Virus record (IMG/VR): IMGVR_UViG_3300022602_000025
Length of the DNA stretch: 64,000 nt
DNA from: a virus
Taxonomy: Duplodnaviria; Caudoviricetes
Strand: one strand, 5' to 3'
Below are positions 7,618 to 26,583 of the stretch, one piece after another. How positions within the stretch are numbered: position 1 is the stretch's first letter; every line of letters begins with the position of its first letter. Position numbers and translations under genes: made by a program. The notes under the pieces are model-generated. The model did no database searches, had not been told where the DNA came from, and saw only the letters and a program-made list of their open reading frames with translations.

Positions 7618-10287
7618 ATGAGTTATGTAGATGCCATCTGGAACCGCGATGATGACGTGGTTCGTGTTGTAGAACGTGACCCTAAGAAAGGTCGCATATT
7701 CCAAGAATTCCCCGCACGTTATACTTTCTATTACCCAGACCAACGAGGTAAGTACACATCAATTTATGGTGAGCAACTTTCCAAAGTTACCTGCAAGAAT
7801 TGGAAAGAGTTTATCAAAGAACAAAAGATTCATAGCGGTCACAAGTTATATGAGTCGGACATCAATGCTGTTTTCCGTACACTAGAAGAAAACTATCTAA
7901 ACAAAGATGCTCCAAAACTAAACGTAGCCTTTTTCGATATTGAGGTGGACTTTGATCCAGAGCGTGGATATGCAAGTCCAGAAGATGCGTTCATGCCAAT
8001 TACAGCGATCGCTGTAAAACTACAATGGTTAGATACTATGGTATGTTTGGCACTTCCACCAAAGACTTTAACAATGGCACAGGCCACAGAACTTGTTAAA
8101 GATTTTCCTAATACACATTTGTTTGAAACTGAAGCAGAACTGTTAGAAACATTCTTACAGTTGATCGATGACGCAGATGTTATTAGTGGTTGGAACTCAG
8201 AGGGCTTTGATATCCCGTACACCGTTAATCGTGTAACTAAGGTTCTCTCTAAAGAAGATACTAGACGTTTTTGTTTATGGGATCAATTTCCTAAGAAACG
8301 TGAATACGAAAAGTTTGGTAAGAACGCTGTTACTTACGATTTAGTAGGTCGTGTACACTTAGATAGTCTTGAACTGTATCGCAAGTATACCTATGAAGAA
8401 AGACACAGTTATCGTTTGGATGCTATCGCAGAATATGAATTAGGTCAACGCAAGACACAATATGAAGGTACACTAGATCAGTTATACAACAATGACTTTA
8501 AAAAGTTTATTGAATATAACATCAATGACTGTCAACTTCTTGATGATCTAGATAAGAAATTAAAATTTATTGATCTAGCAAACACACTGGCTCATGAATG
8601 TACAGTATTGCTACAAACAACGATGGGTGCTGTTGCGGTAACTGAGCAGGCTATTATTAATGAAGCCCATAGTAAAGGCTTTATTGTTCCAAGTCGTCCA
8701 CGCAGAGATGACACCGCAGATAACCAAGCGGCTGGTGCGTATGTTGCGTCTCCTAAGAAAGGATTACATGACTGGATTGGTTCAATGGATATTAATTCAC
8801 TGTATCCATCAGCGATTCGTGCCCTTAACATGGGTCCAGAAACTATCGTTGGTCAGTTACGTCCAGATTATACCAAAGAAGAAATTGAAGCCAAGATGGC
8901 TAAAGGTGCCAGCTTCGCAGCTGCTTGGGAAGGTAAGTTCGGAACTAATGAATACGAATTTGTGATGAACAAAGACATTAGTCATGACATTATTGTTGAT
9001 TGGGAAGATGGATCAACTGATGTGTTAAGTGGTGCCCAGATCAATGATGTAATATTTGAAAGTAATCAACCTTGGATGTTATCGGCCAACGGTACAATTT
9101 TCACTTATGAAAAAGAAGGTATTATTCCTGGTTTACTAAAACGTTGGTATGCTGAACGTAAAGAAATGCAGGCCAAATTAAAAGAAGCAATTAAAGCGGA
9201 GAATAAAATTGAAGAAGAATATTGGGATAAGCGACAGCTTGTTAAGAAAATTAATCTTAACAGTCTATACGGTGCTATTCTTAACCCTGGTTGTAGGTTC
9301 TTTGATAAGCGTATTGGCCAATCCACAACTCTTACAGGGCGCAGAATTGCTCGCCATATGGCCGCAAAAGTAAATGAGTATGTAGCAGGTGAATACGACT
9401 ATATTGGTAAGAGCATTATCTATGGTGACACTGACTCTGTATATTTCAGTGCGTGGCCTGTACTAAAGAATGATATCCAAAAAGGACTCATTCCTTGGAA
9501 TAAAGATACTGTTATCCAACTGTATGATCAAATTAGCGATGAAGTAAATGCTACATTCCCTCAGTTCATGTTAGATAGTTTCCACTGTCCAAAGACACGT
9601 GGCGAAGTTATCAAAGCAGGTCGTGAGATTGTTGCTATCAAAGGCTTGTTCATTACTAAGAAACGTTATGCTGTTCTTTATTACGATAAAGAAGGCAAGC
9701 GCCAGGACGTAGAAGGTAAGCCAGGTAAGATCAAAGCTATGGGCTTAGATTTGAAACGTTCAGATACTCCAGAATTTATGCAGAACTTTTTAAGTGAAAT
9801 CTTAGAAAAGGTTTTGAACGGTAGCCAAGAAGAAGAAATTCTAGATCGTATTAGTGAGTTCCGCACTGAATTTAAATCTCGACCAGGTTGGGAAAAAGGT
9901 TCACCAAAACGTGCTAACAACATCACTGACTACGAAGCCAAAGAAAAGAAATTTGGCAAAGCTAACATGCCTGGACATGTTCGTGCAAGTATCAATTGGA
10001 ATACCTTGAAACGTATGCACGGCGACAAATACAGCCAACAGATTGTTGACGGTATGAAAGTTATCGTATGTAAGGTAAAAGACAATCCTTTAGGTTATAC
10101 CAGCGTTGCGTATCCAGTAGACGAAATGCGTTTACCTAAATGGTTCCAGGAATTACCATTTGATCATTCTGAAATGGAAACAACTATTATTAACAATAAG
10201 TTGGAAAACCTAATCGGAGTGCTTGAGTGGGATTTGGAATCAACTACACAAGAAAATACTTTTGGTAGTTTATTCAGTTTCGAGTAA
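7618..10287 (+). CDS. Family B DNA polymerase with 3'-5' exonuclease (T4 gp43-like)
   Basis: ExoI FFDIEVD, ExoII GWNSEGFDIPY, ExoIII YNINDC, DINSLYPS, KINLNSLYG, YGDTDS; C-terminal NTFGSLFSFE. Confidence 0.97.
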   Translation: MSYVDAIWNRDDDVVRVVERDPKKGRIFQEFPARYTFYYPDQRGKYTSIYGEQLSKVTCKNWKEFIKEQKIHSGHKLYESDINAVFRTLEENYLNKDAPKLNVAFFDIEVDFDPERGYASPEDAFMPITAIAVKLQWLDTMVCLALPPKTLTMAQATELVKDFPNTHLFETEAELLETFLQLIDDADVISGWNSEGFDIPYTVNRVTKVLSKEDTRRFCLWDQFPKKREYEKFGKNAVTYDLVGRVHLDSLELYRKYTYEERHSYRLDAIAEYELGQRKTQYEGTLDQLYNNDFKKFIEYNINDCQLLDDLDKKLKFIDLANTLAHECTVLLQTTMGAVAVTEQAIINEAHSKGFIVPSRPRRDDTADNQAAGAYVASPKKGLHDWIGSMDINSLYPSAIRALNMGPETIVGQLRPDYTKEEIEAKMAKGASFAAAWEGKFGTNEYEFVMNKDISHDIIVDWEDGSTDVLSGAQINDVIFESNQPWMLSANGTIFTYEKEGIIPGLLKRWYAERKEMQAKLKEAIKAENKIEEEYWDKRQLVKKINLNSLYGAILNPGCRFFDKRIGQSTTLTGRRIARHMAAKVNEYVAGEYDYIGKSIIYGDTDSVYFSAWPVLKNDIQKGLIPWNKDTVIQLYDQISDEVNATFPQFMLDSFHCPKTRGEVIKAGREIVAIKGLFITKKRYAVLYYDKEGKRQDVEGKPGKIKAMGLDLKRSDTPEFMQNFLSEILEKVLNGSQEEEILDRISEFRTEFKSRPGWEKGSPKRANNITDYEAKEKKFGKANMPGHVRASINWNTLKRMHGDKYSQQIVDGMKVIVCKVKDNPLGYTSVAYPVDEMRLPKWFQELPFDHSEMETTIINNKLENLIGVLEWDLESTTQENTFGSLFSFE

Positions 10288-10297
10288 AGAAATTTCA

Positions 10298-10326
10298 TTG
10301 ACTTTCTTTCATTTTCTAAATATAAT
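10298..10326 (+). promoter_or_regulatory. sigma70-consensus promoter
   Basis: TTGACT(10298-10303)-N17-TATAAT(10321-10326), then AGGAG and ATG 10345. Confidence 0.8.
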
Positions 10327-10344
10327 AATACAAAGGAGATCTAA

Positions 10345-11079
10345 ATGCTAGACCTATTAAAAGACGTAGTAACACATACCCATAACTTGGGTTTCTTAAA
10401 CATTGTAAAAGTCACAGGCGACGAAACATCAACTAAACTTGACTCAATGGCTGATGACCGTTCAGTGATCCTATACGGTGAAGTAAGCGGACCAGTTCCA
10501 GAAATGATTGGTGTATTTGGTATGCCACAACTTAACAAGTTGAAAATTCATTTAGACTGTCCAGAGTATAAAGAGAATGCTTCAATTGATGTTGTTACAG
10601 CACAGCGTAACGGCGATACAATTCCAGTAGGCTTACACTTTGAGAATGCCGCAGGTGACTTCAAGAACGACTATCGTTTCATGAACACAGAAATCATCAA
10701 CGAAAAGTTAAAGACTGTTAAGTTCCGTGGAGTTAATTGGCAGGTTGAGGTTGATCCAACTGTTGCCGCAATCCAACGTTTTAACTATCAAGCACAAGCA
10801 AACGCAGAACACACAACATTTTTAACTAAAACTGAAAATGGTAATCTAAAGTTTGTATTTGGTGATCAAAGCACACACGGCGGCGAGTTCGTATTTGCTA
10901 CAGGTGTTGCTGGTACATTGAACAAAGCGTGGACATGGCCAGTTCAGCAAGTGTTGAGCATCTTGAAAATCGCAGATGCTAATAATTGCAAATTAAGTAT
11001 CAGTAATGACGGTGCCATGCAGATCGCTTTAGACAGCGGCTTGGCAACTTACAAATATATCATTCCAGCTCAGGCTTAA
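10345..11079 (+). CDS. Probable DNA polymerase sliding clamp (gp45-like)
   Basis: 244 aa, alternating helix/beta-strand pattern, immediately downstream of the polymerase; size matches phage clamps. No diagnostic motif, so the call rests partly on context. Confidence 0.6.
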   Translation: MLDLLKDVVTHTHNLGFLNIVKVTGDETSTKLDSMADDRSVILYGEVSGPVPEMIGVFGMPQLNKLKIHLDCPEYKENASIDVVTAQRNGDTIPVGLHFENAAGDFKNDYRFMNTEIINEKLKTVKFRGVNWQVEVDPTVAAIQRFNYQAQANAEHTTFLTKTENGNLKFVFGDQSTHGGEFVFATGVAGTLNKAWTWPVQQVLSILKIADANNCKLSISNDGAMQIALDSGLATYKYIIPAQA

Positions 11080-11081
11080 TA

Positions 11082-11471
11082 ATGATTAAAGGTATTAACG
11101 CTCAAGGTAGTTTTATAACAGTATCAGGCGGAACAGTAAGTAGTACTTACATATCCCCTGGTTCTGCAGGTGCCGGCATGTTGAGATGGAATCCTAATAT
11201 GAACTGTATGGAAGTTAATGACGGTTCTGTTTGGAAAACCCTAGAATCAAGTTATGCAAGCGTTAGTTTGACTCCAGAAGCTGAATCTATTTTACTGTGG
11301 GCTAGACGTAAAATGGAAGAAGATAGGATGATCGAATCTTTACAAGACGACCATCCTGCTGTTAAAATAGCTAAAGAAAACCTAAATAAAGCCAAAGAAG
11401 CCGCATTACGAGCAGAACAACAACTAAAAGCTACAGTAACACTGAGCAAGGAACATGAACAACAAAATTAA
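11082..11471 (+). CDS. hypothetical protein
   Basis: 129-aa ORF with a beta-rich N-half and coiled-coil C-half. Confidence 0.75.
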   Translation: MIKGINAQGSFITVSGGTVSSTYISPGSAGAGMLRWNPNMNCMEVNDGSVWKTLESSYASVSLTPEAESILLWARRKMEEDRMIESLQDDHPAVKIAKENLNKAKEAALRAEQQLKATVTLSKEHEQQN

Positions 11472-11706
11472 AGAACTTGCTAAACAGGCCACAATCAGAA
11501 AATTTGACGGAACTGGAACCGATATAGGAAAACTAGTTCTTGATGAACAAAAGTTCGCCGAGTTGATTGTTCGGGAATGTATTGATACTGCCTTTCATAG
11601 AGGACATCCTGATTTAGAATTTTTGTTGAAACATTTCGGAGTTGAAGAATCCGGTATTAATCAACAACTGAGAAACCGTAGCACTTATTTTGGGAATAAT
11701 CCATGA
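11455..11706 (+). CDS. hypothetical protein
   Basis: 83-aa ORF with SD AAGGAA; contains KFAELIVRECI. Confidence 0.7.
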   Translation: MNNKIKELAKQATIRKFDGTGTDIGKLVLDEQKFAELIVRECIDTAFHRGHPDLEFLLKHFGVEESGINQQLRNRSTYFGNNP

Positions 11707-11855
11707 ACGAACGAGATATGCCTTGGTGGATGGTCGTTATTGGTTTATTAGTTTTGCCAATTATTTTTGTATTTGTTGGCATTAGTAATATACTTAAAAG
11801 AAAAATGTCAGAGGCAAGAAAAAAATTATGGGAACAAAAACGAAATGAAAAGTAG
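11703..11855 (+). CDS. Small single-pass membrane protein (50 aa, missing from the ORF track)
   Basis: MNERDMPWWMVVIGLLVLPIIFVFVGISNILKRKMSEARKKLWEQKRNEK*; overlaps both neighbours. Confidence 0.6.
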   Translation: MNERDMPWWMVVIGLLVLPIIFVFVGISNILKRKMSEARKKLWEQKRNEK

Positions 11856-13473
11856 ACCACCAGTAGATTTAAGTGTATTGAATAAGGATTATGCCTGCTA
11901 TTTGCCAGCTATCAGTAGTTTTTATAGCACATATATAGCAAAACAAAGATTAGAAGAGTTTGTGCCTAAGGATCGTATTCCAGCAGGATTTGATCGCGGT
12001 ATTGAAGGTATGAACTTTTTAAATCCAGAAGAAGGCTATTTTACCTACAAGTATGGTTTGTATTCAGCAGGTCACGCACAGTTAGATCTTAATAAGAGTC
12101 TAACACAAGAGTCTATGATCCAACAACGTGATCGTGCTAACACAATGATCTTAGGTGACTCAGGTGGTTATCAGATTGGTAAGGGTGTTCTAAAATTTGA
12201 TTGGTTAGACTTTGAAGGTAAGAGTGCTAACAAGACTCGTCAAAGCATCTTAGAGTGGCTTGAACTTACAGCAGATTGGTCAATGATGCTGGACGTTCCA
12301 ACATGGGCATGTGACCATGTACACTCTCCAAAGACTGGTTTAAAATCATTTGATGATTGTTTAGAAAAGACAGCATTCAATAACAAATACTTCTTAGAAA
12401 ATCGTTTAGGACAAACTAAGTTCTTAAATGTTCTGCAAGGTAGTGATTGGGATACCGCTGAGAAATGGTACGATAGAGTTAAAGAATTTAGCGACCCTGC
12501 TGTTTGGGGTGATAAAGCTGCAGAAGGTTGGGCATTTGGTGGCGCCAACATGTGTAAAATGGACATTACTCTTAAACGTCTAATGACTATGAGAGAAGAT
12601 GGAATGTTAGTAGGCAAGAATTGGATTCACTTCTTGGGTACAGCACAATTAGATTGGTCATGCTACTTAACACAAATTCAACGTCAGATAAGGAAACACA
12701 TCAATGAAGAAATTACCATCTCTTTTGACTGCGCCTCACCGTTCATCGCAACAGCACACGGCCTCGTCTACACCAACGCAGTCCACACGCCAAAACGGTG
12801 GAGTGTTATTATGGACAAAGCACCAGATAACAAAGCACTTTCAGGATCAGACATCCCGTTCCCCTTTGAATCAACAATCGGCCGCAGATTAACAATGGCA
12901 GATATTGCCTATTACAACTTAGGCAAACGCAAGACAGATGCTGAATTAAATGGTGAAAAATTTGATCACTTAAACCCAGATCACTATCACGAAGTACCAA
13001 GACTTAACAAGTTAGGTAAGATTCCTAACAAAACAAGTTGGGATAGTTTTGCTTATGCACTAATGATGGGTCATAACGTAGAATGTCATATTGTTGCTGT
13101 ACAACGTGCTCAACAATTAATGGATATTGAAATCGCTAAGACTAAAGATAAACTTCATTGGAGTCATTGGAAGAAAGTAAAATCTAACGACATGAGTGAT
13201 GAATATTCAGATTGGGTTCCACGTAATATTCTTTATTTTAATAGTTTTGTTGAAGATTTGTTTAATACAAAGACAAAAGCAGAAGCATTTGAAATGATTG
13301 AACAAGCTACTCCATTCTTGAAAACATTGGAAGGTGCTCGTTTACAAGGCGGACCTGCTGCAAATACATTTGGTTCATTGTTTACAATTGAAACTGTAAC
13401 TAGCCCAGATGAAATTGATCTAGCAAATCCAGACGATGATGAATTGCGAGCATTAGAGGAAAGCGTAGCATGA
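11845..13473 (+). CDS. tRNA/DNA-guanine transglycosylase (TGT/DpdA-like) protein
   Basis: LGDSGGYQ, MMLDVP, LNVLQG, WAFGG, WIHFLG, FDCASP follow the TGT TIM-barrel motif order; no CxCxxC Zn motif; start placed at ATG 11845; C-terminal NTFGSLF. Confidence 0.85.
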   Translation: MKSRPPVDLSVLNKDYACYLPAISSFYSTYIAKQRLEEFVPKDRIPAGFDRGIEGMNFLNPEEGYFTYKYGLYSAGHAQLDLNKSLTQESMIQQRDRANTMILGDSGGYQIGKGVLKFDWLDFEGKSANKTRQSILEWLELTADWSMMLDVPTWACDHVHSPKTGLKSFDDCLEKTAFNNKYFLENRLGQTKFLNVLQGSDWDTAEKWYDRVKEFSDPAVWGDKAAEGWAFGGANMCKMDITLKRLMTMREDGMLVGKNWIHFLGTAQLDWSCYLTQIQRQIRKHINEEITISFDCASPFIATAHGLVYTNAVHTPKRWSVIMDKAPDNKALSGSDIPFPFESTIGRRLTMADIAYYNLGKRKTDAELNGEKFDHLNPDHYHEVPRLNKLGKIPNKTSWDSFAYALMMGHNVECHIVAVQRAQQLMDIEIAKTKDKLHWSHWKKVKSNDMSDEYSDWVPRNILYFNSFVEDLFNTKTKAEAFEMIEQATPFLKTLEGARLQGGPAANTFGSLFTIETVTSPDEIDLANPDDDELRALEESVA

Positions 13474-13997
13474 AGCGAGAATACGAAACAGGTACGGCAA
13501 GTGATGTAACGTTCTTTATTGGAACTGAGATCGAACGTACTCCTGCATTTGGTATGCGTACTCTTTTTGTAGTAGGTACTCATGACGAACAGGTTATTAC
13601 TAGTCTTGCTAAAAATAATGATTGCACACATATCTATTTTGGTGCTAATCAGAGTTTTCCAAGCCTTAGTGTAAACGATGCAGAAGGATGGCGTCCTTGG
13701 GAAGATATGATTGAAGGTTGTTTGAAGGAAGGCTTTTGGTGTACTTTAGATTTTGACGTAGCACAAGCTGAAGGCCTTTTGGAAAGTGCATTAGTTGAGC
13801 ATCGTAGATTTATTCCGCAGATCAGTGTAAAATTACCTTATCTGCAACAGCTAGGATATAATGCTACGATTAAAATTGACGACAAAGGTTTTGAAGCGTC
13901 TAATCCAGGTGTATGGTGTGTACCGATTGGGGCCATTACACAGCGTAAGTATTTCACCAATTGGGATGAGTATGGTAAAGATGAAATCATATCATGA
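13470..13997 (+). CDS. Uncharacterised protein translationally coupled to the TGT-like gene
   Basis: ATGA overlap; 175-aa alpha/beta pattern. Confidence 0.8.
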   Translation: MKREYETGTASDVTFFIGTEIERTPAFGMRTLFVVGTHDEQVITSLAKNNDCTHIYFGANQSFPSLSVNDAEGWRPWEDMIEGCLKEGFWCTLDFDVAQAEGLLESALVEHRRFIPQISVKLPYLQQLGYNATIKIDDKGFEASNPGVWCVPIGAITQRKYFTNWDEYGKDEIIS

Positions 13998-14644
13998 ATA
14001 CAGTAATAGCCAAGCCGATAAAATTTCCTAATCACGGAGTTTTAACAGCACAAATCCCAGACAATATTTTGTTAGAGATAAAAAAAGAAATTGATATTAT
14101 CTCAAAAAATCGTGCCGGGTCTAAACCATTCAATGACGAATTAGTAGGACAGATTGCAGACGAGTACGATCTATCTAACTGTAAGCAATTACTAAAAGAT
14201 TATGTAAATGAATTAGCAGCGGCATATAGCGAACAGTTTACACCACTGTATCTTAAAAGTAGAGCCAATGTTGTGCAAGGGTCTTATATACTTGAACTAG
14301 ATAAACTATGGGTCAACTTTCAAAAGAAACACGAATTTAATCCTCCCCATAATCATTCTGGAGCATTTAGTTTTGTAATATGGATCAAGATCCCGTATAA
14401 TTTAGCTAATGAGTTTAAATTAGCTAATTCTAAAAATTCCAATCAACCTTTGAATAGTGTATTCTTTATGCAGTATTCAGATGTGTTAGGAAAGATACAT
14501 AGCTTTCCATTGCCCATAGATAGTGAATACGAAGGTACAATATTATTTTTTCCATCCGAATTGCTTCACGGTGTAAATCCGTTTTATACTAGTGACGAAG
14601 AGAGGATTTCAGTAAGTGGTAATTTATTTGTGAGACAAATATGA
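13994..14644 (+). CDS. Putative 2OG-Fe(II) oxygenase
   Basis: NPPHNHSGAFSFVIW ... LFFPSELLHGV ... RISVSGN (HxH..H..R double-stranded beta-helix pattern). Confidence 0.75.
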   Translation: MNTVIAKPIKFPNHGVLTAQIPDNILLEIKKEIDIISKNRAGSKPFNDELVGQIADEYDLSNCKQLLKDYVNELAAAYSEQFTPLYLKSRANVVQGSYILELDKLWVNFQKKHEFNPPHNHSGAFSFVIWIKIPYNLANEFKLANSKNSNQPLNSVFFMQYSDVLGKIHSFPLPIDSEYEGTILFFPSELLHGVNPFYTSDEERISVSGNLFVRQI

Positions 14645-15045
14645 CAGGTTCAACATTAAGACAAGATTTTCGCCCAAACAAAATGATCTGGGTCACGTTC
14701 CAGAAGGAAGGCATCCATTGCTATCCTGCGGCGGCTACAGATCCAGCACTAGCTACAGGAGATGAGTATGACGTATCGTTTTTGGCTAGTCCTCATCGCC
14801 ACATCTTTCATTTCAGGGTGTGGATCAATGTGCAACATAATGACAGGGACATCGAGTTCATCCAATTCAAACGATGGCTCGAGTCGCTGTATAATGGTCA
14901 AGGTTCCATTTTGAAACTTGACTATAAAAGTTGTGAAATGATGTCAGACGATTTGTTTGAAGTCATTAGCAAGAAGTATCCAGGCCGCGAGGTTTGGATT
15001 GAGGTCTCCGAAGATGGAGAAAACGGTTCATTTATCAAGTACTAA
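14641..15045 (+). CDS. QueD-like T-fold protein, DpdL-type signature
   Basis: LASPHRHIF (LxxxHRHxF) in place of the QueD CxxxHGH; DRDIEF and SCEM elements of the PTPS/QueD fold. Confidence 0.7.
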   Translation: MTGSTLRQDFRPNKMIWVTFQKEGIHCYPAAATDPALATGDEYDVSFLASPHRHIFHFRVWINVQHNDRDIEFIQFKRWLESLYNGQGSILKLDYKSCEMMSDDLFEVISKKYPGREVWIEVSEDGENGSFIKY

Positions 15046-15065
15046 CTAGAAATAAGGAAATAGAA

Positions 15066-15296
15066 ATGGCACAGCCAAAGTGGTTGAATAAGTATCTTAC
15101 TATGAAACCAGAAGTTACTAAGATCTTCAACGATCTTGACACATGGCACGATCACTGTCGTATTGAGTTGATCGATTTTAATCCAGCTGATTTATATAAG
15201 TCAAAATCTTATAAAGATTGGCAACGTACTCAAGAGTACTTACAACGTAAGGCTCGAAGAGAAGCTAAGGCTAAACATGACCGTTTTTCTAATTGA
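15066..15296 (+). CDS. hypothetical protein
   Basis: 76-aa ORF with SD AAGGA. Confidence 0.75.
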   Translation: MAQPKWLNKYLTMKPEVTKIFNDLDTWHDHCRIELIDFNPADLYKSKSYKDWQRTQEYLQRKARREAKAKHDRFSN

Positions 15297-16377
15297 TTTA
15301 GAAGCAGTCGAAACCAGGTACACGGGTCAATGGAAGACTCATGTACCTGCGTTACTTAAAAAGGCAGGACACGATGTTCAAGTTATATCTGGGCCTACGG
15401 ATATTCCTACAGCCACTACTCCTGGTGCTTTTCTTAATTTTGGTGGTACCAATATATACAAGTCTAGTCAAGTTGAACAAATGGGCAGGCTATTTTGCTC
15501 CGGATCAGTTCAGCCTGGCGATCATTTCCTGTTTACCGATGCTTGGCATCCTGGCATCATAAACCTTAAATATATGAGTGAGCTGTTACAGATTCCTGTA
15601 ACAACACATGGCTTATGGCATGCTGGTAGTTATGATCCTCAAGACTTCTTAGGACGTCTTGTAGGTAAAAAGCCCTGGGTTAGAAATGCTGAGTTAAGTT
15701 TTTATAATGCGTTTGATCATAATTACTTTGCTACAGAATTTCATATCAAGCTATTTTTTGACGAGTTACTAATGGGCGGTTTGAAATCTGAAAACCCATG
15801 GTACGAAGATGATATAGCAGAAGTACTAGGCGGAGCAAATCCTAAAATTGTCCGCACTGGTTGGCCAATGGAGTATATGGATGGTACATTGACTATGTAT
15901 AAGAACATGGATAAACGTGATCTTATACTGTTCCCTCATCGCATAGCGCCAGAGAAACAAGTCGAAATCTTTAGAGATCTAAAAGAACACTTACCACAAT
16001 ATGAATTTATTGTGTGTCAGGATCAACAATTAACTAAGAATGAATATCATAACTTGTTAGGTGAGGCTAAACTTGTGTTTAGTGCTAACTTACAAGAAAC
16101 ACTAGGCATCAGTTGTTATGAAGGTGCTATTGTAGATGCTATTCCAATGGTTCCAGATAGACTAAGTTATACAGAAATGTATTACGACACATTTAAGTAT
16201 CCTAGTGAATGGACAGAATCATTTGAAGCATACACCGTCCATCGCCCAGAACTGTGTGGAAAGATAATCCAGTACATGGATAATTATGAAAAGTTCTTAC
16301 CCCAACTTAGAAAACAAACATTAGACCTAACTAATCAATTCTTCAGTGCTGATGTTTTACTAGATAGGATCAAGTAA
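15277..16377 (+). CDS. GT-B fold glycosyltransferase (GT4-like)
   Basis: ETLGISCYE (EX7E motif); PHRIAPEK donor-binding region. Confidence 0.75.
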   Translation: MTVFLIDLEAVETRYTGQWKTHVPALLKKAGHDVQVISGPTDIPTATTPGAFLNFGGTNIYKSSQVEQMGRLFCSGSVQPGDHFLFTDAWHPGIINLKYMSELLQIPVTTHGLWHAGSYDPQDFLGRLVGKKPWVRNAELSFYNAFDHNYFATEFHIKLFFDELLMGGLKSENPWYEDDIAEVLGGANPKIVRTGWPMEYMDGTLTMYKNMDKRDLILFPHRIAPEKQVEIFRDLKEHLPQYEFIVCQDQQLTKNEYHNLLGEAKLVFSANLQETLGISCYEGAIVDAIPMVPDRLSYTEMYYDTFKYPSEWTESFEAYTVHRPELCGKIIQYMDNYEKFLPQLRKQTLDLTNQFFSADVLLDRIK

Positions 16378-17180
16378 TGTATTTTAGCAGTATAGGTATC
16401 ATAGGAGTAGGTTTTGTAGGTAATGCAATTAGAGATTCTTTTTCAGGAAGTGGTGTAACACGCCTAGTATTGATAGATCAAGATCCTAATAAAACTACAG
16501 GAACTTATGACGACATTATGAACTGCGAGGGCGTATTTGTGTGCGTCCCCAGTCCTATGTCAGATGACGGAAGTTGCGATACTAGCATCTTAGAAAGCGT
16601 TTTAGAACGTTTAAAAGATTACGATGGTGTAATTATCAGTAAATGTACAGCACCACCAGATGTATATGAAAGATTGAACAAGCAGTATAAAAATCTTGTG
16701 CATGTTCCAGAGTTTTTAACAGCGGCCAATGCTGTACAAGATTATGCTAGACAACAATTCTCTATTATTGGCGGAAGTGTACAAGCATACAGATACGAAG
16801 CAGAACGTATTATTAAATCATCATTACCAGATTTACAAGGCGTACAACATTGTTCAATTGGTGAAGCCGCGATGGCCAAATATCTAATCAATACATTTTT
16901 GGCTACCAAGGTGATTTACATGAACGAATTTAAACAACTAGCAGATGCCGCAGGGTTGGACTATGATCGCATTGTTAGGATGACGTCATTTGATGAGCGA
17001 ATTGGACGTAGCCATATGAAAGTTCCAGGCCCAGATGGTGCATACGGATTTGGCGGTGCGTGTTTTCCAAAAGACACTGCGGCATTATTAAAATATGCAG
17101 AAAAACTTAGTGTACCAATGAATGTTTTGGACACAGCCGTCAAGAAAAATACTCTGTTAAGATTGACAGAGCCTAAATAA
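16377..17180 (+). CDS. UDP-glucose/GDP-mannose dehydrogenase family protein, short form
   Basis: GIIGVGFVG Rossmann, CVPSP, KCTAPP, PEFL, KYLINTFLATK, GFGGACFPKD; ends before the usual C-terminal domain. Confidence 0.9.
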   Translation: MYFSSIGIIGVGFVGNAIRDSFSGSGVTRLVLIDQDPNKTTGTYDDIMNCEGVFVCVPSPMSDDGSCDTSILESVLERLKDYDGVIISKCTAPPDVYERLNKQYKNLVHVPEFLTAANAVQDYARQQFSIIGGSVQAYRYEAERIIKSSLPDLQGVQHCSIGEAAMAKYLINTFLATKVIYMNEFKQLADAAGLDYDRIVRMTSFDERIGRSHMKVPGPDGAYGFGGACFPKDTAALLKYAEKLSVPMNVLDTAVKKNTLLRLTEPK

Positions 17181-17231: not shown

Positions 17232-17996
17232 TTGACAACATTTACAACAGAAGATCTACAGAACGTGATCAACGGCGCTGACAATATGAGCGATAAAGGC
17301 TACAAAGAATCGAATCTAGCAGATGTCATTCGTGCTAGAATGAAACGTGAAGGTAAGCGTTTTTGGGCAGGCGACAACATTAGCGATTATGTTTCAGAAG
17401 AAGACAAAACAATCCTAATCAAAGAAGCAACTGAAGCATTTGAAAAAGTATTAGATACTTTGCTTATTGATAGAAACACTGATCCTAATAGCCAAGGTAC
17501 CGCTAAACGTTTGGCTAAAATGTATTTTAACGAGATAATGGCAGGCAGATATGACCCAGCACCAGATGCAACAAGTTTCCCAAATGAAGTCGAAGATGGC
17601 TACAAAGGTATGCTCGTGGTTCGTAGTGAGTTGCGTAGCATGTGTAGTCATCATCATCAGCCCGTTGCTGGTGTTGCTTACATTGGTATCATTGCCGCTG
17701 ATAGGCTTATTGGCTTATCAAAATACACTAGAATCGCCCAGTGGTGTGCTAGAAGAGGAACTCTCCAGGAGGAACTTTGTAATGATATTGCTAGGGAGAT
17801 TTCCGCAGCAACAGGATCAAAAAACGTAGCCGTTTATATTCAAGCTGTTCATGGTTGCTGTGAGAACAGAGGTATTATGGCTAAGAGTTCATTAACTCAA
17901 ACTACCGTATTAACAGGTGCATTTAAAGATGACCCAGATACTAAGAAAGAGTTTTTTGACAACATCAAACTACAACAGGAGTTTGCTACAAAATGA
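17232..17996 (+). CDS. folE: GTP cyclohydrolase I
   Basis: SMCSHHHQP, GLSKYTRI, LQEEL, HGCCENRG motifs; TTG start after GGAG. Confidence 0.95.
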   Translation: MTTFTTEDLQNVINGADNMSDKGYKESNLADVIRARMKREGKRFWAGDNISDYVSEEDKTILIKEATEAFEKVLDTLLIDRNTDPNSQGTAKRLAKMYFNEIMAGRYDPAPDATSFPNEVEDGYKGMLVVRSELRSMCSHHHQPVAGVAYIGIIAADRLIGLSKYTRIAQWCARRGTLQEELCNDIAREISAATGSKNVAVYIQAVHGCCENRGIMAKSSLTQTTVLTGAFKDDPDTKKEFFDNIKLQQEFATK

Positions 17997-18815: not shown

Positions 18816-19272
18816 TTGGTTAGATAGTATAGGACGCAAGCGTATCATTCTAGATCGACTATGCAACGAGCCTTATCTAGAACGCTACTATCTATTTTTA
18901 AAAGACCGTGAAAATTTTCCCTTTAACGTATTCCTACACAAATTCCTAAAAGGCGACCCAGACGATGTTCATGATCATCCTTGGGGCTATTGCACTTTTA
19001 TTTTGAAGGGCGGTTATTACGAATGGGTTCCTGTCTTTAACACGATAGGTGAAAAAATTAATGAAATACGATATTGGCGTGGTCCAGGTCACTTCCGTAT
19101 TTGTAAGCCTAATAGCTATCACCGTATTGAATTAAAGCCAGGTGTTACAGCATGGACTTTGTTTATGCCTTTGAAGAAAGTGCGTGAATGGGGATTTTTA
19201 GTCAGCAACAAATGGATTCATAACGAAAAATATTTAAAGGATCGCCGTGAACAAGCAAGTAATAGCATATAG
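18790..19272 (+). CDS. Cupin-fold protein
   Basis: HDHPW ... ILKGGYYE ... YHRIEL; SD GGAG at 18781 supports ATG 18790. Confidence 0.7.
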   Translation: MTLTDKFLNWLDSIGRKRIILDRLCNEPYLERYYLFLKDRENFPFNVFLHKFLKGDPDDVHDHPWGYCTFILKGGYYEWVPVFNTIGEKINEIRYWRGPGHFRICKPNSYHRIELKPGVTAWTLFMPLKKVREWGFLVSNKWIHNEKYLKDRREQASNSI

Positions 19273-19744
19273 TGATTATGAAAATTTAATTAGCAATATT
19301 TGTAGAGAAATACATCATAGCGGATGGACTCCAGACTATGTTGTAGGACTTACTCGCGGTGGGTTAATTCCTGCCGTTTTCCTTAGCCATTGGCTAGATG
19401 TTAAAATGAACAGTTTAGACATCAGTTTGCGAGATGGCGGTGATTGCGTTAGTAATCTAGGTATGGCTAGTGATGCGTTTGATGGAGTTAATATCTTAGT
19501 AGTCGATGACATCAACGACACAGGTGCTACATTTAATTGGTTGATGAACGATTGGCAAAATAGTGCTCATCCGTCTAGTGAAGTATGGGAAAAGGTTTGG
19601 AACGGAAATGTTAAATTTGCAGTCGTTGTGGATAACTTATCAAGTAAGTCTAAGGTTAGTATGGACTTTGTTGGTATGGAAATTAACAAAGCAGACGAAG
19701 ATGTCTGGATTGAATTCCCTTACGAGAATTGGTGGAAGAAATGA
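19247..19744 (+). CDS. Type I phosphoribosyltransferase (xanthine/hypoxanthine PRT-like)
   Basis: VVGLTRGGLIPA and ILVVDDINDTGAT PRPP-binding motif. Confidence 0.9.
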   Translation: MNKQVIAYSDYENLISNICREIHHSGWTPDYVVGLTRGGLIPAVFLSHWLDVKMNSLDISLRDGGDCVSNLGMASDAFDGVNILVVDDINDTGATFNWLMNDWQNSAHPSSEVWEKVWNGNVKFAVVVDNLSSKSKVSMDFVGMEINKADEDVWIEFPYENWWKK

Positions 19745-20103
19745 CAAGATTAGAAGGTTTTGTTCCTAAGGGGTGGGGCTCAGAATTTATCTGGGCTAGC
19801 ACTGATCAATACTGTGGCAAGTTAATGAACTTTAACAAAGGTGCAAAGTTTAGTATGCACTTCCATAAAGACAAAGATGAAACTTGGTATGTACAATCTG
19901 GCAGATTTATTGTCCGCTGGATCGATACCAAGACTGCCGAAACACATGATTGGGAAATAGGTGTTGGCACAGTGTGGCACATTCCGCCATGTATGCCACA
20001 TCAACTTATCTGTGTTGAAGCAGGAACAGTTATCGAAGTTAGTACCCCTGATAGTGTAGAAGACAATTATCGTGTAATTCCAGGCGATAGCCAGAAAGGG
20101 TAG
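19741..20103 (+). CDS. Cupin (mannose-6-phosphate isomerase / sugar isomerase-like)
   Basis: KGWG.E ... SMHFH.DKDETWYVQSG ... HQL ... EVSTPD. Confidence 0.75.
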   Translation: MTRLEGFVPKGWGSEFIWASTDQYCGKLMNFNKGAKFSMHFHKDKDETWYVQSGRFIVRWIDTKTAETHDWEIGVGTVWHIPPCMPHQLICVEAGTVIEVSTPDSVEDNYRVIPGDSQKG

Positions 20104-20104
20104 T

Positions 20105-20326
20105 ATGTATAAAACAATTTACACAGAAGTCGAAGTTGATGTTGACTTAGCAGATTTTGACACAGACGATCTAATTGAAGAATTAGAGTCACGTGGCTCG
20201 GGTGTTATGGACTATGGTGATGGCAAAGAAGTGCTAGAATCCATTTACCAAAAACGTAGACTGGGCAAAGATTACCAAGCTGAACTGGAAACCCTAATCT
20301 ATCTAGGACTTGGTCGCATCATATGA
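20105..20326 (+). CDS. hypothetical acidic protein
   Basis: 73-aa ORF between coupled neighbours. Confidence 0.7.
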   Translation: MYKTIYTEVEVDVDLADFDTDDLIEELESRGSGVMDYGDGKEVLESIYQKRRLGKDYQAELETLIYLGLGRII

Positions 20327-20724
20327 AGAAGATAATTGTCAACGGCACATTTGATATCCTACATCAAGGACATATCAGAATGCTAAACACAGCACGTAGC
20401 CTAGGAGACTATCTACTTGTGTGTATTGACACAGACCGTAGGGTTAAAGAACTTAAAGGCGAAAATCGTCCTATCGTAAATCAATACGATCGCAAATATC
20501 ATTTAGAACAGTTACGATCAGTAGATCAAGTTTTGATGTTTGATAGCCAAGAAGAACTTATAGAAATTATTCAAATCTTTAAACCAGACATTATGGTCAA
20601 AGGTAGCGACTACAAAGGTCGTAGTGTAATTGGTGAAACTTATGTACCAGAAGTAATTTATTATGAACGACTCGGTGAATACTCAACAACGAAAACACTT
20701 CAAACTATTATTGATCGGAGATGA
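20323..20724 (+). CDS. RfaE domain II-like cytidylyl/adenylyltransferase
   Basis: NGTFDILHQGHIRML, KGENRPI, KGSDY, YSTT. Confidence 0.9.
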   Translation: MKKIIVNGTFDILHQGHIRMLNTARSLGDYLLVCIDTDRRVKELKGENRPIVNQYDRKYHLEQLRSVDQVLMFDSQEELIEIIQIFKPDIMVKGSDYKGRSVIGETYVPEVIYYERLGEYSTTKTLQTIIDRR

Positions 20725-21445
20725 TTGTGTAGATGTTTATCGTTTTGGAACGGTAGACCGCATATCACCCGAAGCACCTGTACCTGTGTTTAAATTTTCA
20801 CATGATGAAGAAAAACCAGGAATGGCTGCTAATGTACAACTCAATTTAGAAGCGTTAGGCTGTGCTGTCGTTCCTATGCTAGGAAAAGAAAGCGTTAAGA
20901 CTCGTTATATTGACTTGCGATCAAAACAACATATTATGAGATCTGATGTTGACTCTACTTCTACTCCGTTACCATTTGATCATATTCCTTATGATTTAAA
21001 CAACGGTAATGTAGATGCTATTGTTATTAGCGATTATAACAAAGGATATGTTAGTTACGATCTAATAAAAAATCTTCGTAAGGCCTATCATGGTCCTATA
21101 TTTGTCGACACTAAAAAGCATGACCTAGCACAATTAGAAGGGTGCATTATTAAAATTAATATGCACGAATACAGCCAGCTTACTAGCCACCCTAGCGATT
21201 ACACTGACATGATTGTTACCTATGGCGATAAAGGAGTTGTATGGGGTGATTTTGCGTTTAATGCAAAAACTGTCGAAGTAGCTGATGTATGCGGAGCAGG
21301 CGATACATTTTTATCTGCATTGGTCTACGGCTACCTAACTACTAACAGTATGCAAGATGCTATTAATTTTGCGATTAATGCTAGTGCTGTCACAGTACAG
21401 CATTTAGGAAACTATGCACCAACGTTAGAGGAAATAAATGGATAA
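20663..21445 (+). CDS. PfkB/ribokinase-family kinase (RfaE domain I-like)
   Basis: LIGDDCVDVY..RISPEAPVP, SDYNKG, DVCGAGDTF; start could be GTG 20675. Confidence 0.9.
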   Translation: MNDSVNTQQRKHFKLLLIGDDCVDVYRFGTVDRISPEAPVPVFKFSHDEEKPGMAANVQLNLEALGCAVVPMLGKESVKTRYIDLRSKQHIMRSDVDSTSTPLPFDHIPYDLNNGNVDAIVISDYNKGYVSYDLIKNLRKAYHGPIFVDTKKHDLAQLEGCIIKINMHEYSQLTSHPSDYTDMIVTYGDKGVVWGDFAFNAKTVEVADVCGAGDTFLSALVYGYLTTNSMQDAINFAINASAVTVQHLGNYAPTLEEING

Positions 21446-21839
21446 TCATATTTTTAAAGGTATCCCAGATGATATCGATGATAGCGAAGCACCGTGGACT
21501 GAATTAGTAAACGAAGACTATCATGTAAAAGTTTTTGCGGACAAGTATCCTTGTACGCCAGGGCATTTATTGTATGTGCCTAAATATAACACCTTAGGAG
21601 TTTTAAGTGATGCGTTTGAAGATGCAGTTAGATATGGTAAAGGAATGGTGGAAGCCGGAGAATGGGACGGTTTCAATGTGGGACTTAACTATGGCAAAGC
21701 TGCAGGTCAAACTGTCAACTGGCCTCATATACATCTTATCCCACGCAGAACGGGCGATGTCGAAGATCCGGTTGGCGGTGTTAGGAACACAATGCCAGGC
21801 AAAGGCAACTATCGCTCGCCGAACTTTCGAGCAGATTAA
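21438..21839 (+). CDS. HIT-family nucleotide hydrolase
   Basis: PGHLLYVPK, AGQTVNWPHIHLIPR. Confidence 0.85.
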   Translation: MDNHIFKGIPDDIDDSEAPWTELVNEDYHVKVFADKYPCTPGHLLYVPKYNTLGVLSDAFEDAVRYGKGMVEAGEWDGFNVGLNYGKAAGQTVNWPHIHLIPRRTGDVEDPVGGVRNTMPGKGNYRSPNFRAD

Positions 21840-22483: not shown

Positions 22484-22637
22484 TCCAAACGGTAAAATTG
22501 GTACCTGTGGGTGTGGTCGTAGTCCGACTGGTAATTGTTGCGGATGGCATGGCCTAAGTGAAGAACAGTATCAAGAAGCCCATGCCAAATGGTTGCAAGA
22601 AAACAGCGTTGAAAGCGAAGGCGGAGAAATTGAGTAA
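22467..22637 (+). CDS. Small CDGSH-like iron-sulfur/zinc-finger protein
   Basis: CGCGRSPTGNCCGWH resembles CxCxxS...CDGSH; SD GAGG upstream of ATG 22467. Confidence 0.65.
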   Translation: MQVRANPNGKIGTCGCGRSPTGNCCGWHGLSEEQYQEAHAKWLQENSVESEGGEIE

Positions 22638-23490
22638 GATTAAAATCGCAGAGTTGTTTTACAGCATACAAGGTGAAGGCCGCTATATGGGCGTGCCAAG
22701 TGTCTTTTTACGTACATTTGGTTGTAACTTTAAATGTGCGGGTTTTGGCATGCCACGTGGTGAGCTGAGTACAGAAGCAGATGAAATTGCGGAAGTAAAA
22801 CAGCATTTTACAAAATACGAAGAACTACCGTTAGTATCAACTGGTTGTGATAGTTATGCATCATGGCATCCTGATTTTAAAGATCTAAGTCCCATGCTAA
22901 CAAGTGATGCAATCGCAGATCGCATTATGGAAATCCTTCCGCATAATGAATGGCTAGATGAACATTTAGTCATCACAGGTGGTGAACCCCTGTTAGGTTG
23001 GCAACGTGCTTATCCAGATTTACTTGACAATCCTAAAATGTCTGGATTGAAAGAAATTACTTTTGAAACAAATGGTACTCAGAAACTTACACAAGAGTTT
23101 AAAGAATATTTAAAAACCTGGAATCAACGACAATTTCCACATGGTGATTGTGGGGAGATTACATTTAGTGTAAGTGCTAAACTTCCTTGCAGTGGCGAAA
23201 AGTGGGAAGATGCTATCAAGCCAGAAGTCGTATGCGAATATGAAGAAGTTGGTACAGCATACTTGAAATTTGTCATTGCTACAGAACAAGACTTTGCTGA
23301 TGCAGAATGTGCTATTGGTGCATATCGCGCCGCTGGATTTAAAGGACATGTTTACTTAATGCCAGTTGGTGGCGTTGAAAGTGTATATGCTTTGAATAAT
23401 AAATCAGTGGCACTAATGGCTATGAAACATGGTTTACGCTATAGCGATCGTTTACAAGTTCCGCTATTTAAAAACGAGTGGGGTACTTAA
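22630..23490 (+). CDS. queE: 7-carboxy-7-deazaguanine synthase (radical SAM)
   Basis: ELFYSIQGEG..G.PSVFLRTFGCNFKC...GCDS, ITGGEP, FETNGT, SAKL, YLMP, RLQV; TTG start at 22630 after GGAG. Confidence 0.9.
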   Translation: MSKIKIAELFYSIQGEGRYMGVPSVFLRTFGCNFKCAGFGMPRGELSTEADEIAEVKQHFTKYEELPLVSTGCDSYASWHPDFKDLSPMLTSDAIADRIMEILPHNEWLDEHLVITGGEPLLGWQRAYPDLLDNPKMSGLKEITFETNGTQKLTQEFKEYLKTWNQRQFPHGDCGEITFSVSAKLPCSGEKWEDAIKPEVVCEYEEVGTAYLKFVIATEQDFADAECAIGAYRAAGFKGHVYLMPVGGVESVYALNNKSVALMAMKHGLRYSDRLQVPLFKNEWGT

Positions 23491-26298: not shown

Positions 26299-26583
26299 AT
26301 GAGTCGACCAAAGCCAAACGTACTGTTAGAATTAACAAATAAAAAGACCTATAAAACTGAACAAGTTTTAGAAGCCGAAGCCATCTGGGCGGTGTTTTAT
26401 AAAGACAAGCCCGTGAACCTAAAAACTACCAGTATAATTGCCCAACAGCTAGGACCAAAATATAAAAAAGTTAGTTTTTCTAATAGCGGTCATGCCATTA
26501 ATTTAGCAGAAAAATTAAACAAATTGTTCAATAGCACCGACTTTTCAGTATATAAACTTACAACAGGCGAACGCTTAGAGTAA
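26299..26583 (+). CDS. hypothetical protein (probably late)
   Basis: 94-aa ORF behind the hairpin/late motif. Confidence 0.8.
   Translation: MSRPKPNVLLELTNKKTYKTEQVLEAEAIWAVFYKDKPVNLKTTSIIAQQLGPKYKKVSFSNSGHAINLAEKLNKLFNSTDFSVYKLTTGERLE

Follow-up and report, generated by a model that had tools for sequence, protein, structure and literature searches.

The stretch of viral DNA considered here (64,000 nucleotides; IMG/VR record IMGVR_UViG_3300022602_000025; the whole of it is called the window below) comes from an uncultured jumbo phage, a distant relative of Pseudomonas phage PA5oct. It carries in a row the genes for a T4-type family-B DNA polymerase, a sliding clamp of the PCNA/gp45 type and a remote member of the TGT/DpdA superfamily, hereafter the transglycosylase. 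The polymerase and the transglycosylase share the peptide NTFGSLF in their C-terminal tails, and these tails are conserved among relatives and co-vary. Taken together, this is probably explained by a DpdA-like transglycosylase that docks on the clamp and is coupled to the replication machinery. The docking principle is known; that it has a new client here, a DNA base-exchange enzyme, is well supported in silico.

The polymerase (7618–10287, plus strand, 889 amino acids) is T4/RB69 gp43-like. It matches Pfam DNA_pol_B and DNA_pol_B_exo1 and phrog_262 (E 3.7e-205), and its matches in the Protein Data Bank (PDB) are RB69 and T4 polymerase chains, the RB69 alignment stopping short of the C-terminal tail. 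The protein ends in TTQENTFGSLFSFE (longer stretch, LESTTQENTFGSLFSFE), that is, in NTFGSLF (10255–10275, plus strand) followed by SFE and the stop codon, a putative clamp-binding tail recognized by direct reading and by its conservation in homologs. The transglycosylase (11845–13473, plus strand, 542 amino acids) carries GGPAANTFGSLFTIE, and its C-terminal stretch reads GGPAANTFGSLFTIETVTSPDEIDLANPDDDELRALEESVA up to the stop codon. Here NTFGSLF occupies residues 507–513 (13363–13383, plus strand) and is a putative clamp-binding motif by direct reading, six-frame scan, conservation and predicted interface; it does not lie at the extreme C-terminus, as 29 further, mostly acidic, residues precede the stop. 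An earlier note on this DNA had drawn attention to an identical heptapeptide spelled with different codons, and both the listing of open reading frames (ORFs) and direct reading bear it out. The codons are AAT ACT TTT GGT AGT TTA TTC in the polymerase gene and AAT ACA TTT GGT TCA TTG TTT in the transglycosylase gene, so that all seven residues are identical while four of the seven codons and six of the 21 bases differ. The match is therefore one at the protein level, and a DNA duplication as its origin is ruled out. In all six frames of the window NTFGSLF occurs only these two times, and among the last 40 residues of the other plausible gene products of the window there is no FxxLF-type peptide. 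The further idea that the motif might be a general tag of fork proteins fell in a scan of the window, since the flap endonuclease (FEN)/RNase H homolog and the other proteins there are without it. The only other LF-type tail of the window, KLNKLFNSTDF at 15 residues before the stop of a 94-amino-acid ORF (26299–26583), may be due to chance. In the PA5oct genome, a scan with a degenerate DNA pattern for the motif was as noisy as its control. Among 27 distinct plus-strand matches that were read in frame (the first 30, up to 224.5 kb; the other 8 plus-strand matches and all those on the minus strand fell outside this reading), FxSLF stands near the end of a real ORF only in the polymerase and the transglycosylase.

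The setting of the motif in the transglycosylase is a flexible one. In the AlphaFold2 (AF2) model, residues 500–530 (13342–13434, plus strand) form a linker that contains the motif and is the only disordered segment of an otherwise confident structure, with a predicted local distance difference test score (pLDDT) below 50 at residues 500–524 and 526–530. The tail after the barrel is thus flexible in the model, as had been supposed from the letters, and such a disordered segment is the usual setting of a short linear motif. Positions 13384–13470 encode the 29-residue acidic extension that follows the motif and ends in a short helix, DDELRALEESVA (residues 532–542; 13438–13470, plus strand; helical at 532–541 in the model). 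The pattern of this helix, (D/E)(D/E)xKLxxLE, is kept in PA5oct, in the relative L087 and in both clades of viral contigs, and the extension is absent wherever the motif itself is the extreme C-terminus. The acidic helix may be a second docking element.

Conservation was followed in 160 related viral contigs from which both tails were extracted. FxxLF lies within the last 12 residues of 141 of the 145 complete polymerase homologs, and the consensus of this tail, NTF(G/N)xLF(S/D/E)F(E/D/G) before the stop, is nearly invariant in the close clades. The motif was likewise expected to be conserved in the TGT-like homologs, and so it proved: FxxLF is found within the last 50 residues of 108 of 153 complete transglycosylases, 21 have a looser hydrophobic variant, and most of the remaining 24 retain an xxLF core (e.g., NISNSLFVEV or GNKDLFDWGD). 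The motif stands either 1–4 residues from the stop or before an acidic extension of 25–35 residues that ends in the (D/E)(D/E)xKLxxLE helix. Across the family, many representatives of clusters formed at 50% identity likewise terminate in a peptide of this kind. Some shorter members (~420–470 amino acids) are without it; around one of these (L225, 21 kb) a clamp and a family-B polymerase were not seen, and two other such contexts were too short to judge. The contigs of distant family members are mostly too short to contain the polymerase.

With so little variation of the polymerase tail inside the close clades, it is the distant pairs that are informative. Tails are given here up to the stop codon, and dots at the right mark a protein that continues. 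In PA5oct the polymerase ends in ..AAAHFDSLFGW and the transglycosylase, EST35_0316, carries ..NSNSFNSLFDVD.. (SFNSLFDVD); the corresponding tails are ..NNTDLFDW and ..NNNDLFGW in Vibrio phage 2.275.O, ..SKFESLFD and ..GTFDGLFDIED.. in L087, ..TLDDLFDF and ..VVNNLFDFS in L090, ..LSTFFEF and ..NLSLFEF in L221, and ..TTFNDLFTF and ..KIVEGLF, a weak pair, in Phosso. The mimicry recurs in a separate, remotely related lineage of DpdA2-like enzymes from T4-like phages, where ..PSLDDLFE of the ACP17 polymerase is paired with ..TTLDELFE of its DpdA, ..SSLEDLFGW with ..NSLDDLFG in Moby, and ..STLDDFFS with ..ASLDSFFD in BUCT-ZZ01; the proteins with these near-copies of gp43 tails are ACP17 gp123 (L173:6698-7972), Moby gp042 (L176:1501-2712) and the BUCT-ZZ01 product (L178:1501-2751). 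In pf16 the match is poor (polymerase ..VSLEDFFS, DpdA ..VTLDLMCA), and in KVP40 and nt-1 the polymerase ends in ..TLESFFG and DpdA2 is without such a tail; the share of G modified by the nt-1 enzyme is reportedly small. Each transglycosylase tail was scored against every polymerase tail by the best ungapped 7-mer (BLOSUM62), and the pairing was then permuted over 12 pairs, namely those just given without L221 and with the addition of the window and of L094, from the second clade of viral contigs. Of 100,000 permutations, 6 attained the sum for the true pairs (p = 6e-5), a value to be read knowing that pairs and tail windows were picked by eye and that the lineages are not phylogenetically independent. 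The two tails co-vary across related genomes, as the reading of the earlier note required.

The gene between the other two had been taken for a probable clamp, and the fold agrees. The 244-amino-acid product (10345–11079, plus strand) was modelled with AF2 from 71 homologs (pLDDT 92.9, predicted template modelling score, pTM, 0.89). The model has the two-domain processivity fold of a PCNA/gp45-type protomer, and PCNA or viral PCNA-like clamps make up the whole of the top 50 Foldseek matches in the PDB (E ~5e-11, template modelling score 0.6–0.7). At the sequence level, the protein falls in no family except phrog_12062, labelled 'unknown function', and has no detectable similarity to gp45. Homologs lie directly 3' of the polymerase gene in PA5oct, Phosso, Vibrio phage 2.275.O and ~150 viral contigs. 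Those of PA5oct and Phosso (L004:3001-3741) are annotated as structural proteins. In PA5oct the label of EST35_0314 (L001:7912-8658), which is PCNA-like by fold, comes from electrospray ionization tandem mass spectrometry (ESI-MS/MS); this implies either a loose annotation or virions that contain the clamp. In Phosso, the product annotated as 'virion structural protein' beside the transglycosylase (L002:8211-8933) is a different protein and no homolog of the clamp.

Docking of the peptide on this clamp was modelled with three copies of the clamp, supplied with an alignment, and residues 496–542 of the transglycosylase. The interface score (ipSAE) was 0.61–0.63 in three runs (0.62), compared with 0.35, 0.22 and 0.00 for controls, and earned the mark 'supports binding', whose calibration (58 of 80 solved complexes, 2 of 110 mismatched pairs) is rough here, with our own alignment and a multi-copy set-up; the score is the model's own confidence and may partly be memory of solved PCNA-peptide complexes. 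On the side of the tail, the confident interface comprises residues 506–516, that is, the motif. On the side of the clamp, it falls on one protomer and comprises residues 39–40, 42, 123–130 (the interdomain connector), 196, 222–224, 239 and 241–244 (the C-terminus). As predicted, this is the canonical pocket of PCNA- and gp45-binding peptides, so that the complex prediction proposed in the earlier note placed the motif where a clamp client would be expected to bind, with 0.62 against 0.35 for the best control.

The shared peptide might instead dock on another hub of the replisome, such as the clamp loader, the helicase-primase or the single-strand-binding protein, in which case coupling to replication would not run via the clamp ring. 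Co-variation with the polymerase tail points to a common partner without saying which one, no partner has been assigned to the conserved acidic helix that follows the motif, and in Phosso the transglycosylase gene adjoins primase and DnaB-like helicase genes, far from those for the polymerase and the clamp. However, the homologous polymerase tail of T4 and RB69 binds the clamp (PMC2988020), the clamp gene lies between the polymerase and transglycosylase genes here and in most relatives, and it is exactly the motif that is placed in the canonical clamp pocket, better than controls. We therefore consider another hub unlikely and the clamp the probable partner.

The identification of the 542-amino-acid protein as TGT-like comes from its fold and catalytic motifs, though no sequence model detects it. 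The AF2 model (pLDDT 91.8, pTM 0.90) shows a (beta/alpha)8 barrel of the TGT type with a C-terminal subdomain. Its top 50 Foldseek matches are all TGT or ArcTGT (E ~2e-6), and VIA-align superimposes model residues 13–467 on TGTs with Z 18–19.5 and a root-mean-square deviation of ~4.5 Å over ~300 residues. In an alignment of 102 sequences with identity down to ~28%, the motif DSGGYQ (residues 105–110; 12157–12174, plus strand) occupies the place of the catalytic-Asp motif of the TGT superfamily, D105, S106 and G108 being invariant and G107 and Q110 nearly so; it aligns with DSGGLQ of ACP17 DpdA. D295 in ISFDCASPF (12727–12729, plus strand), also invariant and aligned with ISYDS of ACP17 DpdA, is the candidate equivalent of the TGT nucleophile Asp. 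H262 and G265 are further invariant or nearly invariant positions, and D150 is nearly invariant. Against the ACP17 DpdA, which groups with the DpdA2-type enzymes of nt-1, VH7D and KVP40, hhalign gave 96.4% probability over 179 columns with the DSGG and xSxD segments aligned. Against phiST DpdA3 (CGPG_00065), it gave 82% probability and E 1e-5 over 83 columns only, and the lengths are 542 and 259 amino acids; membership in DpdA3 was not assigned for these reasons. Searches of Pfam (PF01702 included), NCBIfam and PHROGs returned no match to the protein, nor did phmmer or a family profile when run on PDB sequences. As no curated sequence model matches, the protein is filed as a TGT-fold, DpdA-like enzyme of an unnamed subfamily. 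DpdA3 and DpdA4 were likewise detected by HHpred only. The family is large, with 880 clusters at 50% identity and >6,000 at 90%.

The genes around the transglycosylase bear on its substrate. A T-fold protein (14641–15045, plus strand) has LASPHRHIF, which fits the DpdL signature LxxxHRHxF (PMC10516641) that here takes the place of the CxxxHGH of QueD; DpdL is the proposed 7-carboxy-7-deazaguanine decarboxylase. This DpdL-like protein is 32% identical to phiST CGPG_00067 (E 4e-17), and it has tblastn matches in PA5oct, Phosso, ACP17 and phiST. FolE, GTP cyclohydrolase I (17232–17996, plus strand; Pfam PF01227, E 7e-40), would provide the first step of the 7-deazaguanine pathway. A radical-SAM protein (22558–23490, plus strand) is a QueE-like candidate, with weak matches to Pfam Radical_SAM and Fer4_12 (E ~6e-4) and the annotation QueE in the syntenic block of PA5oct. 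In relatives, the transglycosylase gene is linked to QueE (PA5oct), to QueF, QueC, FolE and YhhQ (Vibrio phage 2.275.O) and to FolE (metagenomic contigs). The DpdL signature, together with the absence of any QueC or QueF gene from the window, suggests that the inserted base derives from 7-carboxy-7-deazaguanine and is perhaps 7-deazaguanine itself. PA5oct DNA is resistant to restriction enzymes with G-containing sites (PMC12191111), and a survey of jumbo phages credits PA5oct with a system for deazaguanine synthesis and incorporation (PMC7824862). DNA is the most likely substrate of the transglycosylase because of this gene linkage, the resistance of PA5oct DNA and the survey.

Other genes are interleaved with these. 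In order, the transglycosylase gene is followed by a coupled gene for a 175-amino-acid protein, a 2OG-Fe(II) oxygenase gene and the DpdL-like gene, and farther 3' by genes for a UDP-sugar dehydrogenase, FolE, a phosphoribosyltransferase and the QueE-like protein. The stretches 13470–17180 and 19247–21839 hold the 175-amino-acid protein, the oxygenase, a 366-amino-acid protein at the position of a Glycos_transf_1 protein in L088, the dehydrogenase, the phosphoribosyltransferase, a PfkB kinase, a cytidylyltransferase-like protein and a HIT protein, a set that may point to additional decoration of the base or to a route of nucleotide salvage. Such a set of sugar-nucleotide, oxygenase and phosphoribosyltransferase genes, in a window with neither QueC nor QueF, would also fit a clamp-bound protein that is not a DNA 7-deazaguanine insertase and acts on tRNA or on another base or substrate, or serves as a non-catalytic, clamp-binding regulator. 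The want of a match to any curated TGT or DpdA sequence model and the remoteness of the named subfamilies (83 columns with phiST DpdA3, 179 with ACP17 DpdA) fit it too. Yet the invariance of the DSGG(F/Y)Q and FD Asp residues throughout the family speaks against a dead scaffold; in many lineages FolE, QueE, DpdL, QueF or QueC genes are linked to that of the transglycosylase; a clamp tether implies double-stranded DNA as substrate; and the DNA of PA5oct behaves as G-modified (PMC12191111) in a phage credited with a deazaguanine system (PMC7824862). A clamp-bound protein with some other task is thus improbable, and a DNA transglycosylase is the preferred reading.

Besides the limits given above with the complex score and the permutation test, several observations weigh against a clamp-docked transglycosylase. 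The pLDDT of the peptide in the predicted complex is low (42–51). The FEN/RNase H homolog, an expected clamp client, is among the proteins of the window without the motif. A handful of close homologs have a degraded motif (e.g., KLMIVED or NQHFYEE), and the pairs of Phosso, pf16, KVP40 and nt-1 are weak, poor or missing a partner. The enzyme itself escapes every sequence-level search listed above, and conserved cysteines of a TGT-type Zn site (CxCxxC...H) are not evident: the 102-sequence alignment has no invariant or near-invariant Cys, and the window protein has an Ala where the family consensus has its single Cys. With a motif so short, and with such exceptions, the resemblance between the tails might be one without shared function, by chance or by compositional convergence of disordered, acidic-hydrophobic tails. 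That reading was already disfavoured and is very improbable, given that the seven-residue identity is unique in 64 kb, that the motif is retained in hundreds of homologs to ~30% identity while the flanking linker varies, that tails score higher against the polymerase of their own phage than against those of others, and that the pattern recurs in a second DpdA subfamily.

In the mechanism that we propose for the docked enzyme, the transglycosylase would exchange guanine in double-stranded phage DNA for a 7-deazaguanine base, most likely, made by the products of the adjacent FolE, QueE-like and DpdL-like genes. The disordered linker after the catalytic barrel would display NTFGSLF, the peptide that also ends the polymerase, and this, as in T4, would insert in a clamp protomer, in the hydrophobic pocket that lies beneath the interdomain connector loop and beside the C-terminus of the clamp. 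The transglycosylase would thereby join the clients of the clamp 'toolbelt' (reviewed in PMC9690074, PMC2705854) and travel along new phage DNA, either with the fork or with clamps that stay behind it, and could scan and modify guanines processively.

Clamp docking could be general to phage transglycosylases of the DpdA type in phages that have their own clamp, a generality undescribed so far and one that we put forward tentatively, as somewhat less likely than not to hold. Clamp-type tails are seen in the jumbo-phage subfamily of the window, in the DpdA2-like enzymes of ACP17, Moby and BUCT-ZZ01 and, as QDLF, in DpdA1 of phage 9g. In 9g the order of genes is DpdA, beta-type clamp, polymerase; its DpdA1, gp03 (L226:3007-3960), ends in ..RLQDLFDE, which resembles the bacterial beta-clamp motif QL(S/D)LF, and the C-terminus of the 9g polymerase has no such peptide.

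As to the transcription and layout of the locus, the earlier note had placed one promoter at 10298 ahead of the clamp and transglycosylase genes. A sigma-70-like site, TTGACT-17-TATAAT, is indeed present 5' of the clamp gene (10298–10326, plus strand) and matches the consensus at 11 of 12 positions, and no terminator-like site was found between the clamp and transglycosylase genes. The promoter assignment is a consensus match: the site is the best promoter-like one within 10200–13600, and the total of such sites in this interval is no higher than in shuffled sequence. The likely start of the transglycosylase gene is ATG 11845 (542 amino acids), which is preferred because a start at TTG 11767 would overlap a small membrane-like ORF. 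At its other end, the gene overlaps by ATGA that of the 175-amino-acid protein (13470–13997, plus strand), to which it is translationally coupled; this product has no family match and has a homolog at the same position in L087. The polymerase gene of PA5oct is split into two annotated coding sequences by a gene for a Hef-like homing endonuclease (L001:5009-6691), whereas that of the window is uninterrupted. Among 50,697 phage records, megablast returned no match to the locus. Elsewhere in the window, a very long ORF (4,558 amino acids) lies on the minus strand at 40898–54574 among structural genes.

The replacement of guanine in phage DNA ranges from <0.1% to 100%, and the field has no explanation for this range or for the choice of the phage's own DNA. 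A clamp-docking peptide would offer a concrete mechanism, in which the enzyme scans processively on clamps that phage replication has loaded. If docking is general, the insertion of 7-deazaguanine would be coupled to replication rather than freely post-replicative, which would help to explain the very high or complete replacement of guanine in some phages and the targeting of phage rather than host DNA. Viral clamp clients would gain a base-exchange enzyme, and a match to the polymerase tail would provide a sequence rule for finding clamp clients. The 880 clusters of the metagenomic family, which have no curated annotation, would become probable DNA transglycosylases. The culturable relatives PA5oct, ACP17, Moby and 9g make the idea directly testable.

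Among known systems, the closest in its logic is that of T4, in which gp43, gp55 and gp33 bind gp45 through a shared hydrophobic-acidic C-terminal peptide, and in which these motifs are interchangeable and work when internal (PMC2988020). Read from the T4 genome, the tails are ..ASLDFLFG for gp43 and ..SLDFLYEAND for gp55; the alpha- and beta-glucosyltransferases of T4 have no gp43-like tail. As in T4, one short hydrophobic-acidic peptide is found on the flexible tails of several proteins of a single phage, here NTFGSLFSFE at the end of the polymerase and NTFGSLFTIE with 26 further residues in the second protein. Like gp45 and PCNA, the clamp of the window is a two-domain protomer of the trimeric type by its predicted fold. 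Unlike in T4, the second client is a DNA base-exchange enzyme and not a transcription factor, the consensus of the motif is (N)xFxxLF(D/E/S)(F) instead of SLDFLF, and the clamp, whose binding of the peptide is a prediction, has no detectable sequence similarity to gp45.

The DpdA enzymes named so far are DpdA1 (9g, CAjan), DpdA2 (nt-1, VH7D), DpdA3 (phiST, CP220) and DpdA4 (HVTV-1) (PMC6884629, PMC10516641). The transglycosylase of the window resembles them in its TGT fold with DSGG and in being encoded beside genes of the FolE, QueD, QueE and DpdL types, near a polymerase gene, and it would be expected to share their function, the replacement of G in phage DNA by a 7-deazaguanine. The DpdL-like gene is a feature that the window shares with phiST and ACP17. 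The phiST DpdA3, however, is less than half as long (259 against 542 amino acids) and only remotely alignable, and it is the window enzyme that lacks a PF01702 match. The putative clamp-binding tail is the element that is new with respect to published descriptions. The 7-deazaguanine modifications of DNA have been classed as post-replicative (PMC10516641), the word 'clamp' is absent from the central DpdA papers searched, and no relevant paper turned up when deazaguanine or DpdA was paired in literature searches with sliding clamp, PCNA, gp45, replisome or processivity. This accords with the supposition that the coupling had not been described before.

Tethering of base-acting enzymes to clamps has precedents outside phages. 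The PCNA-interacting peptide (PIP) boxes of DNMT1 and UNG2, and the bacterial QL(S/D)LF motif, tether DNA-modifying or base-excision enzymes to clamps. Like DNMT1 and UNG2, the window enzyme has a short linear motif in a disordered region that is predicted to dock an enzyme acting on bases of duplex DNA on the clamp, coupling it to replication. Unlike these, its reaction would be transglycosylation with a 7-deazaguanine base, in a virus with its own clamp and through another class of motif.

The nearest precedent for a clamp-bound modification enzyme is the alpha-glucosyltransferase of T4. Its interaction with gp45 was proposed in 2004, and a 2025 preprint found none in vitro or in vivo (bioRxiv 10.64898/2025.12.06.692756); this non-reproduction also counts on the side of the objections raised above. 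The idea is the same in both cases, a phage enzyme of DNA hypermodification that would ride the clamp and modify DNA during replication. However, unlike the alpha- and beta-glucosyltransferases of T4, the transglycosylase of the window has an explicit, conserved motif like that of gp43.

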